The position numbers and the translations under genes are program-made. Below are positions 3,447 through 7,666 of a stretch of DNA of 38,625 nt, piece after piece. The notes below the pieces were generated by a model, which was not told where the DNA came from, searched no databases, and saw nothing but the letters and a program-made list of their open reading frames with translations. Origin of the DNA: Planctomycetota bacterium (GTDB lineage: Bacteria; Planctomycetota; UBA8108; UBA1146). The stretch's first letter is position 1. Every line of letters begins with the position of its first letter. Location: contig JBBWWC010000145.1 of assembly GCA_050256555.1 (NCBI GenBank), positions 1 through 38,625 on the forward strand, given 5' to 3'.

Positions 3447-4532
3447 CTACTGGCGAGCCGAATCCATCACGACCGCAAGGGCATCGAGGGCTTCCCTGAG
3501 CTGATCCACCGGCAGACCAAAGCCGATCCGGATGTGATCCGGAGCGCCGAAAAGGTAGCCGGGGGTCAAATTCACACCGTTTCCCAGACACATTTGCCGG
3601 AATTCATCACCATCGATACCGCTGTCACAAGGCACCCGAGGAAAGCAAACCAGACCACCATCCGGAACCACCAGCGACATCGGTTGGTCTTCCAGCCAGG
3701 AACTAAAAACCGCCCAACCTTCTGTGGCAAACTTTCGACCTCGCTGACGAAGCGGCTCCCATCTCTTGATCGCAGCGCGAGCCACTTGATCGGTCAAACA
3801 TGAGTTGTGAATAGTGGTCGAATCAAAAATACAACGCGCGCGTTCCACCAGCTCCGGAGTCGCCATCCCCCACCCAAATCTGATCTGTGAAATTCCATGC
3901 ACCTTATTCAGACCTCCGATGCTCACGATCGATGGGTGGCGTCGTGAAATCGGTCCAGGATCCGGATCAAGAAACGGTCGATACATCTCATCGACAATGA
4001 CATGGCAATCTAAATCCTGACACAGTGCCGCAATCCCTTGCTCCTCTTCGACAGAAAGCTTCACCCCACTAGGATTGTGCAAATTGGTCAGCAACAATAA
4101 TTGTGCATCGTGTTCATGAATGATTGTGCCCAGCTGCTCGAGGTCGATGCGATATCCTTCCTCGAATTTGCGAGCAAAGGGAACTGTTTTCACACCCTGC
4201 ATCGATAAGGCATTGACGACCGGAAGATAGCCAGGCATCTCATGTACCACGGTTGCCCCTGGTCCTGCCAACGCCGATGCAAAACAGAAGTGCGCATGTG
4301 AAGCACTCGAAGCGAGAAGAATCCCCTCGGGATCAAGATCCCAGGTCTTTGCCAACGTATCCATCACTTCAGGCGGACCATAAGGCGTGAATTCGAACAG
4401 TTCGAGACTTCCTGGATCTAGATCGATGTCTTGCCAGCTAACCGGTGGGACAGCGCTCATCGTGAGCTTGTGCTTTCCTAGCTGTCCCTCCGATTTTGCC
4501 CATCGGATATAGGGGACTCTGGAGAGTTCCAT
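3447..4532 (-). CDS. PLP-dependent aminotransferase class I/II
   Basis: TNLHNPSG, VIVDEMY, GGLNK (PLP lysine), IRFGW and HIRIGFG. Start placed at MELSRVPY (4532) after a purine-rich RBS; the ORF track extends to 4625. Confidence 0.88.
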   Translation of the reverse strand: MELSRVPYIRWAKSEGQLGKHKLTMSAVPPVSWQDIDLDPGSLELFEFTPYGPPEVMDTLAKTWDLDPEGILLASSASHAHFCFASALAGPGATVVHEMPGYLPVVNALSMQGVKTVPFARKFEEGYRIDLEQLGTIIHEHDAQLLLLTNLHNPSGVKLSVEEEQGIAALCQDLDCHVIVDEMYRPFLDPDPGPISRRHPSIVSIGGLNKVHGISQIRFGWGMATPELVERARCIFDSTTIHNSCLTDQVARAAIKRWEPLRQRGRKFATEGWAVFSSWLEDQPMSLVVPDGGLVCFPRVPCDSGIDGDEFRQMCLGNGVNLTPGYLFGAPDHIRIGFGLPVDQLREALDALAVVMDSARQ

Positions 4533-5479
4533 TCCTCTTCCTCTCTCATCTTTTGCAAACGGACTCGTCGGCGAAATCTTTGATTCAATGCCGCAATGAT
4601 CACCAGAATCGCAAGACCTTTCCACGACAGAATGAACTCGAGAAGAAGTCCGAGAAAAACCTGCGAATCGGCAAGTTCACGTCTCCACTGTTCTGTCGCT
4701 TCCTCGATGGAAAGTCCGGAAACCTGCTCAAATCCTGCTTCCCAGCGAGTTCCTGCCAAACATTTTTCAAGGATTCTGGCATGAAGATTCTCACCCCAAC
4801 GCTTTCGAGTCCAATCGATAAATAAAAGCGCTTCGGCATAGAGTAACGAAGCTCGGTAATGATCTTCTGGAAGATACTGATCAAGATCGGTGATCGGAAC
4901 CAATGCATCACTACGCGCCAGAAGAATCAAGGCTCTACGGGTCGAAGGTTCAGGTCTCTGATGAGCCACGGATTGCGCTATTCCCTCGTGAACCCAGCGC
5001 GGCAAAACACCACCGGCTTCTGCCAGGACCAGATGGGCCAGTTCATGAACAACGGTAGCGTTACCCCTGGATGGCTGTCGAACCAGATGGAACGCATCGA
5101 TGATGGCGATTCCTTTGCCGGTCAAGGCCACCGCAGGAACCCACTGCGGAACTGTTTTGGAACCGAGTTCCTTGAGCGCATTATTGAGCCCAACGTGTCC
5201 ATGGACCAGAACCAGCAATGGACGGCGTGGAGAAACAGATCCAAGCCAGACTCTCAGTTCAAACAGAGCCTTCTCGACCCGACTCTGAAGAGCGTCTGAG
5301 GGATCATTCACTCCGGGAGCTACCGCCCAATCGACAGTAGAGTTCTCGATGCGTCGGTATTTCTCCAACGCGTCTTGCTGGGCTGCCAAAGAAGATTTGG
5401 TACCCACGCACAACACCAGCAGAAAGACACTGGCGATGAACCACAGAGAAAATCGTGTTGTCGAAAAATCTCGGTACAC
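4478..5479 (-). CDS. Peptidase MA-like (gluzincin-type) membrane-anchored metallopeptidase
   Basis: HELAH plus PRWVHEGIAQ third-ligand motif; N-terminal signal-like hydrophobic stretch; C-terminal TM followed by a basic tail; GTG at 5479 after AAGGAG. Confidence 0.8.
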   Translation of the reverse strand: MYRDFSTTRFSLWFIASVFLLVLCVGTKSSLAAQQDALEKYRRIENSTVDWAVAPGVNDPSDALQSRVEKALFELRVWLGSVSPRRPLLVLVHGHVGLNNALKELGSKTVPQWVPAVALTGKGIAIIDAFHLVRQPSRGNATVVHELAHLVLAEAGGVLPRWVHEGIAQSVAHQRPEPSTRRALILLARSDALVPITDLDQYLPEDHYRASLLYAEALLFIDWTRKRWGENLHARILEKCLAGTRWEAGFEQVSGLSIEEATEQWRRELADSQVFLGLLLEFILSWKGLAILVIIAALNQRFRRRVRLQKMREEEEWNSPESPISDGQNRRDS

Positions 5480-5494
5480 GTTTCTCCTTGATAC

Positions 5495-5527
5495 AAAAAA
5501 AGGCGTGGGATCAATGATCCCACGCCT
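5495..5527 (-). terminator. Rho-independent terminator closing the actin-like module
   Basis: Perfect 12-bp stem AGGCGTGGGATC-ATT-GATCCCACGCCT followed by a T-run on the minus strand, ~30 nt after the stop at 5557. Confidence 0.85.
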
Positions 5528-5556
5528 CCCATGATCCAATTTGTATCGTCGAAACG

Positions 5557-6750
5557 CTAGGCACTCTCGGAAAGAGCAGCAACCAAGCATCCCTTGGAAA
5601 CGCTATACAGCGGATCCTCGGCAAGACGGATCTCTTTGATCTCAAGCGGGAACTGAATCTTCTCGAACTCCTGCTGGAAGACTTCAGTAAAGCCGCCAAT
5701 CATGCTCGTTCCACCAGCACAGACAATGCTCACTGGCTCCGGGAAACGAGGCATAGAGGAAGAAGACTCGAAACGTTCCTTGATATTCTTGAGTGTGTAG
5801 GAGATCAGGTTGCGGTAGTAAATCTCGACCGCTTCTTCATCGCGCCCCTGCGGATTGGCGAGATCGATCCCCTTCTCCTTCAACCCGCATGCGCGAGAGG
5901 AGCTGATTCCAAGTACGTTGGCCACGTTGCGATCGATCCAATCGCCACCACGTGTGGTCGAGAAGGAAAGCGCCGGAATCGACTTGTACGCAACGCAAAC
6001 GTTGAACATTCCACCACCACAGGAGATCCCGATGCCGGTGAAATCATCTTCGGCAAGCTCGGAGAAGACCACAGCGTGACCTTCCACCAGCGGCTTGGGC
6101 TCGTATCCAAGCCCCTTCAGCAATCCGCCAAAAACGCCCTGGTGATAAACAACATTCATATCCGCATCGATGGGATCAGCAGGAACAGAGAAGTAGCAGT
6201 TCTCACCCTGTTGCTTCGGCTTACCGAGCAGGGTCTCGAGAAGCATCTTCTCGATCGGAAGAGCGTCATTCTCATCCGGACTGATCATGCCGTCCTTCAT
6301 CGGGCGACGAGTGTTTCGATTGAAGATATTCGCGAGCTCAAATGCCGGATCTCCAACGACCACCATGCGATTATTCACCACCACGTACTGAACGCCCAAA
6401 CGGGTCAGCATATTGCGGGTGTAATCATCACAATCGATATCGATGAAAGCATTCCGCTGGATCTTGAGGTTCACGTTACCCGTGCCGTCCTGGAAGGAAG
6501 ACACGAGATTTGCAGTACCCACATCCAGTCCACGTCCCAACGAAACTCCAACAGTCGACTGATCCGAAACAGTGGCCTCAGCAGCAACAACCGGAACATC
6601 CGCATTACCTTTGGGCGGATAATTGACTGCATTGAGTGCGTTTGCTTCCTCGACACCGAAAACAACATCTTTTTTCTGGTCCTTGCCTGCTTTCGCAGCG
6701 GAACCCTTATTCTCGAAGTTGTCACGGGCGTAATCTGCGTAATCTCCCAT
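5557..6750 (-). CDS. Actin-fold (ASKHA) ATPase, volactin-like
   Basis: Phosphate-1 GLDVGTANL, connect-1 LVEGHAV, phosphate-2 GIGISCGGGMFNV, RGGDWID, adenosine CAGGTS and connect-2 DPLYSVSKGCLVAA. The FANIFNR-like/TRRPM and PADPID segments match haloarchaeal volactin as I recall it. Confidence 0.85.
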   Translation of the reverse strand: MGDYADYARDNFENKGSAAKAGKDQKKDVVFGVEEANALNAVNYPPKGNADVPVVAAEATVSDQSTVGVSLGRGLDVGTANLVSSFQDGTGNVNLKIQRNAFIDIDCDDYTRNMLTRLGVQYVVVNNRMVVVGDPAFELANIFNRNTRRPMKDGMISPDENDALPIEKMLLETLLGKPKQQGENCYFSVPADPIDADMNVVYHQGVFGGLLKGLGYEPKPLVEGHAVVFSELAEDDFTGIGISCGGGMFNVCVAYKSIPALSFSTTRGGDWIDRNVANVLGISSSRACGLKEKGIDLANPQGRDEEAVEIYYRNLISYTLKNIKERFESSSSMPRFPEPVSIVCAGGTSMIGGFTEVFQQEFEKIQFPLEIKEIRLAEDPLYSVSKGCLVAALSESA

Positions 6751-6756
6751 GCCCCG

Positions 6757-7389
6757 TTACTCCGTTTCTTTCTGGAGGCCTCGCAATTTTGCCAGATTGG
6801 CTGCGATTCCTCCCGCTTTCGCGTTTTTCACCTCGACCTGGCCGAGGTTATTTTCCAATTCTTCGCCCGACGACTTTGAATAGAGCGCGACAAGCGCCTC
6901 TTCAGACGGGACATCTTCTACTTTTATTGGGGCTCCGCTGGTGCCATGTGCCACCTTGCTGGTCAGAGCATCGATACTCTTGCGAATACCATCGATCTGA
7001 TCGCCGGTTGCATTGGCGGGCTCGGGCTGAGCGTCTGCCAGGGCTTCCTTCACCACGGAGCGAAGCTCGTCCGTGTCCAAGGACTGTCCAGGAGCTTGAT
7101 TTTTCGTGCGTGCCTCCTGGAGTTTTTCTTCCAGGTCGACAGCTTGCGCACGTAACTTCTCGATCCGCTCCTCGTAGCTCTTCTGCTTCTCCACTTGTTC
7201 GGAGTTACGCTTTTTCACCAGACGGGTGAACTCGCTACGAGCTTCTTCACGAATTCTGTCGCAGTCATCATCGTTGATTTCACTGAGACGCTCAGCGACA
7301 ACATTTTCGACAGCTTCATCGATGAGATTGAAAACAGCGGCTTTATCGAGAACCTTGACAGTTCTGTGCCCCCCTGCGTGCGAGTTCAT
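6757..7389 (-). CDS. Coiled-coil hypothetical protein, putative partner of the actin-like ATPase
   Basis: Heptad-rich E/K/Q segment (YEERIEKLRAQAVDLEEKLQEA); short amphipathic C-terminus (GIAANLAKLRGL); stop only 6 nt before the actin ATG. Confidence 0.75.
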   Translation of the reverse strand: MNSHAGGHRTVKVLDKAAVFNLIDEAVENVVAERLSEINDDDCDRIREEARSEFTRLVKKRNSEQVEKQKSYEERIEKLRAQAVDLEEKLQEARTKNQAPGQSLDTDELRSVVKEALADAQPEPANATGDQIDGIRKSIDALTSKVAHGTSGAPIKVEDVPSEEALVALYSKSSGEELENNLGQVEVKNAKAGGIAANLAKLRGLQKETE

Positions 7390-7666
7390 CGATGGCCATG
7401 GTGCTAGTGCGCTTTTTTAATGCGTCAGGCACATCAAATGTATGACTCATCGGCCAACCGTCCTTGTTGGTACGCATTTCCGTTGCTCCCGCGAGAACTA
7501 GAAAAACGCACGCTGGTCGATCGCTGGGATCAACCCGATTACGAAGGCCCCTTGGTAGAGGCCAAGAAGACTAGCATCGGGTTGGAAAAGGCGGCAAATC
7601 GGGTCATCGGAGAGAAATGAGAAATAAGCCCTCAGCGGCGACAGGGCTGCTGTATTGCGAGAATCT

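Follow-up and report, generated by a model that had tools for sequence, protein, structure and literature searches.

The volactin-family actin gene

The window analysed here is the 38,625-nucleotide (nt) contig JBBWWC010000145.1 of a Planctomycetota bacterium (assembly GCA_050256555.1), and the system in question is a pair of adjacent genes on its minus strand. The downstream gene (5557-6750) is a 397-amino-acid (aa) open reading frame (ORF) for a volactin-family actin-like ATPase, in which residues 71-397 form the core and residues 1-70 an N-terminal tail. The upstream gene, first called as a 210-aa ORF (6757-7389), encodes a putative coiled-coil protein, termed here the partner, and the gap between its stop side and the actin gene is 6 nt. 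A preliminary description of this DNA, made from the letters alone, had read the pair as a volactin-like actin with a dedicated adaptor or nucleator. That interpretation is supported by the sequence comparisons reported below as regards family membership and the linkage of the two genes in bacteria.

The actin matches the Pfam Volactin family (PF25216) with 300.5 bits against a cut-off of 35 (E-value 2.3e-89; profile positions 3-321 of 321), and the same match was obtained in a genome-wide model search, in which the gene proved to be single-copy. The preliminary description had judged MreB, FtsA and MamK unlikely, and the respective models fell far below their cut-offs: MreB_Mbl gave 12.9 bits (cut-off 27), FtsA 20.4 bits (31.8), TIGR01174 11.6 bits (175.85) and the MamK model NF040964 27.5 bits (400). 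The same was true of the crenactin model NF053560 (14.7 bits; cut-off 630). No Hsp70 or ParM model matched at E ≤ 1, the ParM result referring to models, as no ParM sequence was compared directly. BLASTP aligned the protein with a Halogeometricum volactin-family protein, which is not the Haloferax volcanii VolA itself, at 42% identity over 327 aa (E = 6e-98), and tblastn returned five haloarchaeal megaplasmid records with 42-44% identity over 82% of the length (E = 1e-77 to 1e-79). The H. volcanii genome, included as a control, also matches the Volactin model. All seven segments that had been likened to volactin are present, and they are the same or near-identical in the Halogeometricum protein.

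An alignment of 91 family members displays conservation of D76, G78, T79, E223, S243, G245, G247, G346 and G347. These include the phosphate-1 DxGT motif (Asp76), the catalytic Glu223, a serine at phosphate 2, and an AGGTS motif with the adenosine-binding Gly346-Gly347. The replacement of the phosphate-2 aspartate by serine, noted in the preliminary description, is borne out by alignment with MamK, in which the family's Gly-Ile-Ser-x-Gly-x-Gly-Met lies over Val-Asp-Ile-Gly-Ala-Gly-Thr and Ser243 over the aspartate. Ser243 is kept in at least 90% of the 91 aligned members. Residues 1-70 form a low-complexity tail that is conserved within the taxonomic family only. A search of the PDB with the single actin sequence found no relative; the 91-member profile matched MamK (E = 7e-15), 8r2n, an "actin family protein" (1.5e-9), MreB (1e-7) and FtsA (2e-6), so that the solved structures closest by profile belong to proteins that form filaments.

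Phylogeny was inferred twice, using FastTree on 178 rows and an IQ-TREE quick search on 62 rows chosen from these (37 locus-derived, 24 representatives and the genome's own MreB). The outgroup consisted of that MreB only. The window actin was placed in a Planctomycetota-dominated clade with a support of 97 in the FastTree tree and 82 in the IQ-TREE tree, the latter with an inner clade at 95, and three haloarchaeal rows and both huge-phage rows shared another clade (support 98, then 92). The backbone was poorly resolved in both trees. The expected grouping with VolA stood at one level and not at the other: the window actin is a clear member of the Volactin family, but its subclade is separate from the haloarchaeal members in both trees, and orthology with VolA in the sense of a common subclade is not indicated.

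The partner gene and its linkage to volactin

A profile of the relatives' partners matches the window in two frames, at 6760-7416 (E = 1.3e-97) and 7346-7570 (E = 4e-12), with profile positions 27-232 corresponding to 6760-7371 and positions 1-30 to 7361-7450. At the junction lies a run of six Gs on the minus strand (7369-7374) with one G too many, which a DNA alignment with five same-genus loci finds in the window alone. Because this extra G shifts the frame, the 210-aa ORF is a shortened reading. The main frame of the partner gene (6757-7371), delimited by the profile and an alignment of 33 homologues, holds the coiled-coil region and a volactin-specific C-terminal region, and the first ~27 codons (7372-7450), located by the profile match, stand in another frame, beginning with an ATG at 7450-7448. 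The sequence AAGGA (7465-7461, minus strand) lies ten nt upstream of this ATG, and relatives encode ~230 aa from the equivalent start. Among 35 database homologues, the window's 210-aa form is the one without the conserved N-terminus, and its first seven residues are an out-of-frame artefact. Thus, of the arrangement first described, a 397-aa ORF 6 nt downstream of a 210-aa gene, both ORFs and the gap are confirmed, but the 210-aa ORF is not the natural gene. No contig from three public DNA runs covers 7342-7369, and the frameshift may therefore be a real mutation or an assembly error alike. The window gene was left unmended, and analyses of the partner were carried out with intact relatives.

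The alignment of the 33 homologues comprises a conserved N-domain of ~55 residues, a helical region of variable length and a conserved C-terminal region of ~50 residues. The partner has no transmembrane (TM)-like window and one heptad-like stretch; the designation coiled coil is based on a crude heptad scan (residues 83-119 of an intact relative) and on sub-threshold matches to coiled-coil families. None of the 33 members scored above a Pfam cut-off, and no relative was found above threshold in NCBIfam, in the PDB (best E = 0.034) or, in usable form, in a feature-based atlas search (best score 0.81).

The two genes are closely linked in Planctomycetota. By tblastn, all of 20 loci have the partner upstream of volactin, even where its identity falls to 28-30%. 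With a profile built from database homologues, 74 of 80 species loci showed it upstream in the same orientation. Four of the other six have a C-terminal version, a ~200-aa ORF holding the C-terminal region only, directly downstream of tandem volactins; in another the sequence stops at a contig end, and the last lacks a partner. In total, a partner-like ORF adjoins volactin in 79 of the 80 species loci. The profile is selective: only 2 of the 22,836 ORFs of the window's own genome matched at E ≤ 1e-3, both being pieces of the partner gene, and across the 80 loci 77 of 6,691 ORFs matched, none of them on the opposite strand. It also matches the N-termini of 10 of the 272 volactin proteins searched, where the N-terminal part of the partner is joined to volactin in one chain, as in a 669-aa protein with the partner at residues 6-199 and volactin at 338-663.

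Co-occurrence was assessed in 301 Planctomycetota genomes of at least 85% completeness, at a partner threshold of E ≤ 1e-6, which misses divergent partners: 75 genomes have both genes, 38 volactin only, 22 a partner-like gene only and 166 neither. The divergence of some volactins is illustrated by four loci from near-complete genomes of one family, f10 (L021, L025, L060 and L061), whose volactins are ~24% identical to that of the window and score up to 320 bits with the Pfam model. No partner-type gene is present there, and the different upstream genes encode proteins of ~500-600 aa, one of them with an SLBB domain.

The remaining features of the locus concern its layout. A Shine-Dalgarno-like GGAG (6760-6763, minus strand) lies within the final partner codons, 9 nt ahead of the actin ATG, and may couple translation of the actin to that of the partner. 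Downstream, an intrinsic-terminator hairpin followed by a T run (5498-5530, minus strand) begins 27 nt past the actin stop codon. It consists of 15 pairs, eight of them G-C, around a three-base loop, and its free energy is -27.5 kcal/mol (z = -5.98); none of 200 shuffled sequences folded equally well, in keeping with its earlier description as a perfect terminator. The flanking genes encode NDK, an NFACT protein, a 274-aa protein without a family, a peptidase-MA-like protein and an aminotransferase, in an order kept within the taxonomic family and partly within the order and class. These are ordinary chromosomal genes, and inspection of the window's neighbours found no mreCD, ftsZ, plasmid or magnetosome genes, as had been noted previously. 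Judged by this layout, the pair is a chromosomal two-gene operon.

Several further observations concern this region. Marine metatranscriptome contigs match 6571-6867 and 7400-7550 exactly, the former bridging the partner/actin junction, which gives a weak indication of expression of the operon. By source name, the close protein homologues come from marine Planctomycetota metagenome-assembled genomes, and the organism is placed with these. In the intergenic region upstream of the partner (7531-7604), three ACCCGAT-type words form two inverted pairs that could be an operator or could have arisen by chance. The longest ORF of the downstream peptidase-MA-like gene (4478-5590) begins within the actin gene and crosses the terminator; the actual start probably lies further downstream, ahead of a hydrophobic signal-like segment.

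Relatives of the pair in other actin systems, haloarchaea and viruses

Part of the partner is shared with another actin family. In five of six fetched loci from genomes with a partner-like gene only, that gene lies directly upstream of a MamK-family actin scoring 391-412 bits (cut-off 400); most of the 22 genomes of this kind belong to two families. A comparison by hhalign of the volactin partners with six MamK-associated partners gave a probability of 98.15 and E = 6.4e-14 over 106 columns, spanning the N-domain and coiled coil. The MamK-associated proteins match profile positions 4-172 only and do not have the volactin-type C-terminal region. It is because this profile-profile comparison was made on six MamK-associated proteins that the link is firm; single profiles of the own-genome MamK-associated partner and the volactin partner match weakly (E = 2.8e-5 and 0.022), as does BLASTP (E = 0.005). 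The N-domain and coiled coil would thus serve two actin families, and the C-terminal region occurs beside volactin alone.

In the volactin-free Planctomycetota genomes, partner-like genes (L148-L151 and L153) encode 307-734 aa with the N-domain and coiled coil only. The window's own genome contains such a pair on a further contig, C193 (L047: 312-1451 and 1459-2190), in which a 379-aa partner-like protein is encoded 8 nt upstream of a MamK-family actin. The latter runs into the contig end, with a score of 253.7 bits over 231 of 335 positions, and no magnetosome genes are in view. Taken as a whole, the MamK-family loci suggest that a MamK-like system, equipped with a separate adaptor, is widespread among non-magnetotactic Planctomycetota.

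Volactin itself is common and patchily distributed. The Volactin model was above its cut-off in 37 of 41 relatives and in 113 of the 301 phylum genomes, distributed unevenly across families. A representative library yielded 1,213 cluster representatives at E ≤ 1e-3 and 390 at E ≤ 1e-30. Among Genome Taxonomy Database (GTDB) species genomes, 496 of 599 pattern matches proved to contain a relative, and the best 80 are nearly all labelled Planctomycetota, with several Omnitrophota. In the compared loci of the window's own subclade, the cores are 55-96% identical. Two huge uncultured-phage genomes (485 and 595 kb) also carry a volactin-family gene, and in IMG/VR a relative was identified for 554 of 600 pattern matches, the contigs reaching 619 kb.

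Variant forms of the protein were observed as well. These include tandem pairs with members in two subclades, ~730-aa double-volactin fusions, and ~700-aa forms with a ~350-residue insert in the middle of the fold (loci L033, L034, L036, L095, L096, L101, L102, L114, L118, L132, L137 and L142; proteins including P0121, P0122, P0137 and P0167). In two loci of family f57 (L062 and L063), the volactin core ends ORFs of 812-820 aa, whose ~480-aa N-terminal part matches neither partner profile and may represent either a genuine extension or an ORF called too long.

The preliminary description had proposed a survey for a conserved upstream coiled-coil gene in bacteria and haloarchaea. The gene is conserved in bacteria, as described above, whereas in all three haloarchaeal megaplasmid loci covered (L042-L044) its place, immediately ahead of the volactin-family gene and in the same orientation, is taken by a DUF7139 gene. 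The encoded protein is ~300 aa long, has an acidic tail and 3-4 TM-like windows, and is a candidate for anchoring the tips of a volactin filament in the membrane. Viral loci were drawn from phage and IMG/VR contigs (L146, L147 and L154-L233), including some of 200-620 kb. A tight upstream ORF is present in 66 of 80 viral loci; 38 of these ORFs form one unnamed family, ~190-240 aa long with a basic C-terminal tail and located just upstream of volactin, and 11 form another. The planctomycete-type partner was found in a single viral locus.

The C-termini of the planctomycete, viral and haloarchaeal partners look similar by eye and align in register with weak statistics. A hidden Markov model comparison gave E = 39, hhalign gave E = 0.032, 0.0042 and 0.05 with probabilities of 1.6, 8 and 1.1, and two C-terminal regular expressions, written post hoc, each fit one group only. 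A motif common to the three kinds of partner is thus a lead only. If it were real, volactins and their adjacent proteins might constitute one ancient filament-plus-docking-peptide system of Planctomycetota, haloarchaea and huge phages. Partners of different build (a soluble coiled coil, DUF7139, or the ~200-aa viral family) would present a similar short two-part C-terminal motif to the filament, while their other ends would set the local job, which in FtsZ-less Planctomycetota could belong to division, budding or inner-membrane organisation. We regard this extended scheme as rather unlikely.

Proposed function and comparison with known systems

It is hypothesized, with a probability of roughly 0.7, that the locus is an actin-like cytoskeletal module composed of a Volactin ATPase and a dedicated adaptor. 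By homology with H. volcanii volactin, the actin-fold (ASKHA) ATPase would most likely form dynamic, nucleotide-dependent filaments. The N-domain and coiled coil would dimerise the partner and tie it to a common cellular target, and the C-terminal region, found with volactin only, would be the filament-binding element. The most likely cellular job would be the positioning or anchoring of a structure, or morphogenesis. What the sequence comparisons show is the family membership, the anatomy of the operon, the conserved adjacency, the domain fusions and the homology of the partners; polymerisation, physical binding, the assignment of the partner's two ends and the cellular role are inferred from them. 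Volactin is no substitute for MreB, since MreB is encoded in the window's own genome (463.6 bits) and in 294 of the 301 phylum genomes, with or without volactin; the module would act alongside it. A search of the window's own genome (80% complete) gave no match to tubulin or FtsZ. To our knowledge, Planctomycetota lack FtsZ and have unusual cell plans, and for this reason a conserved, unstudied actin system in them is worth a direct look.

A number of points weigh against this hypothesis. The partner gene is broken in this very window, and the partner is not universal: 38 of the 113 volactin-positive genomes have no partner match at E ≤ 1e-6. This volactin-only set includes all 16 genomes of family f10, the volactins of which are divergent, and two loci from two f10 genomes have other upstream genes. 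Other upstream proteins are likewise present in the haloarchaea (three of three loci) and in most viral loci (79 of 80). The fusions come from metagenomic gene prediction and were not checked at the DNA level. Because related genomes do not count as independent samples, the numbers exaggerate the support; for this reason, and because the threshold misses divergent partners, no statistical test was applied to the co-occurrence. Finally, the serine at phosphate 2, which is likewise present in haloarchaeal family members, could alter the ATPase chemistry.

The pairing of an actin with an adaptor in two genes is also the established logic of type II partition, and the locus could in principle serve DNA segregation of the ParM/ParR or salactin kind, with the partner as a centromere-binding adaptor and the filament pushing or pulling a chromosome, megaplasmid or phage genome. 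The occurrence of family members on the haloarchaeal megaplasmids and in the two huge-phage genomes, and their frequency in viral contigs, are consistent with this, as such large replicons could need positioning; moreover, the volactin paper likens volactin dynamics to dynamically unstable ParM. The window itself argues otherwise. The gene is single-copy and stands in a chromosomal housekeeping context with synteny kept across the order, no direct-repeat array was found in the 320 nt upstream of the partner (two short inverted pairs only), and no DNA-binding family was found in any of the 33 partners. The partner also precedes the actin gene, whereas in parMR the adaptor gene is downstream. 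A role in segregation is accordingly unlikely in our estimation.

The two remaining alternatives do without a filament or without a connection between the genes. The changed phosphate-2 site might act as a switch in a non-filamentous ASKHA ATPase that works with a coiled-coil cofactor as a chaperone-like or regulatory pair, and a coiled-coil gene directly upstream of such an ATPase is analogous to grpE-dnaK. The same serine, however, occurs throughout a family that includes the H. volcanii protein, which forms filaments in vivo according to the volactin paper; the nearest solved relatives are polymer formers, and the Hsp70 models gave no match. We therefore consider a non-filamentous pair very unlikely. 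Mere adjacency, either as inherited synteny without a physical or functional link or as a recently acquired mobile or phage gene set, would be suggested by the close relationship of many loci to one another and by the abundance of the family in viral contigs. Against this, the adjacency holds at 28-30% partner identity and across many families of the phylum, the domains are fused in some proteins, and in some loci the partner has shifted downstream of tandem volactins and is still adjacent. Neither protein gives a meaningful match to a PHROG or PADLOC family, the actin giving none at all, and the flanking genes are conserved and of housekeeping type. Mere adjacency is accordingly very unlikely.

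The cytoskeletal module with a dedicated adaptor thus remains the preferred reading, and as a candidate for a new cytoskeletal system of bacteria it is open to experiment. Work on volactin has been confined to a single archaeon, and the family emerges here as one that is well conserved in bacteria as well; experiments can be directed at a specific partner family and, within it, at a likely binding region. A literature search returned no publication that deals with volactin-family actins of Planctomycetota or of phages, although the supplement of the volactin paper (Supplementary Note 5, on homologues), which lay outside the search, may mention bacterial relatives.

Among known systems, H. volcanii volactin (VolA, HVO_2015) is the point of reference. 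According to the volactin paper, it forms dynamic filaments in vivo with tips that touch the membrane, and it is needed for a timely rod-to-disk change; its binding factors are described there as not known. The window actin resembles VolA in belonging to the same Pfam family over its full length and in sharing the motif set, including the serine at phosphate 2, and it resembles the haloarchaeal plasmid loci in having a same-strand gene just upstream. It differs in its bacterial host, its separate subclade and its 70-aa N-terminal tail, and its partner is soluble, without a TM-like window, in contrast to DUF7139 with its 3-4 TM-like windows. The actin of 'Ca. Uab amorphum' is a lokiactin-like protein and distinct from volactin.

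MreB with RodZ/MreCD is likewise based on an actin-fold protein thought to be morphogenetic, and there is a weak profile relation; the MreB_Mbl score of the window protein is nevertheless below the cut-off, and the genome has a separate, true MreB elsewhere. ParM/ParR/parC is similar in combining a filament former with a small adaptor in two genes, and dynamic filaments would be expected here by analogy with volactin. It differs in that the present locus has no centromere-like repeats, lies in a chromosomal context, has the reverse gene order and gives no ParM model match at E ≤ 1. MamK is set apart by the low score of its model, by the lack of magnetosome genes near the locus and by the absence of the partner's C-terminal region from MamK-associated partners. 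It is nonetheless the closest solved structure by profile, and the volactin partner is related through its N-domain and coiled coil to the proteins whose genes precede those of MamK-family actins in Planctomycetota. This N-terminal module connects the partners of the two actin families and suggests that actin-like filaments are attached to something in these cells in a similar manner.

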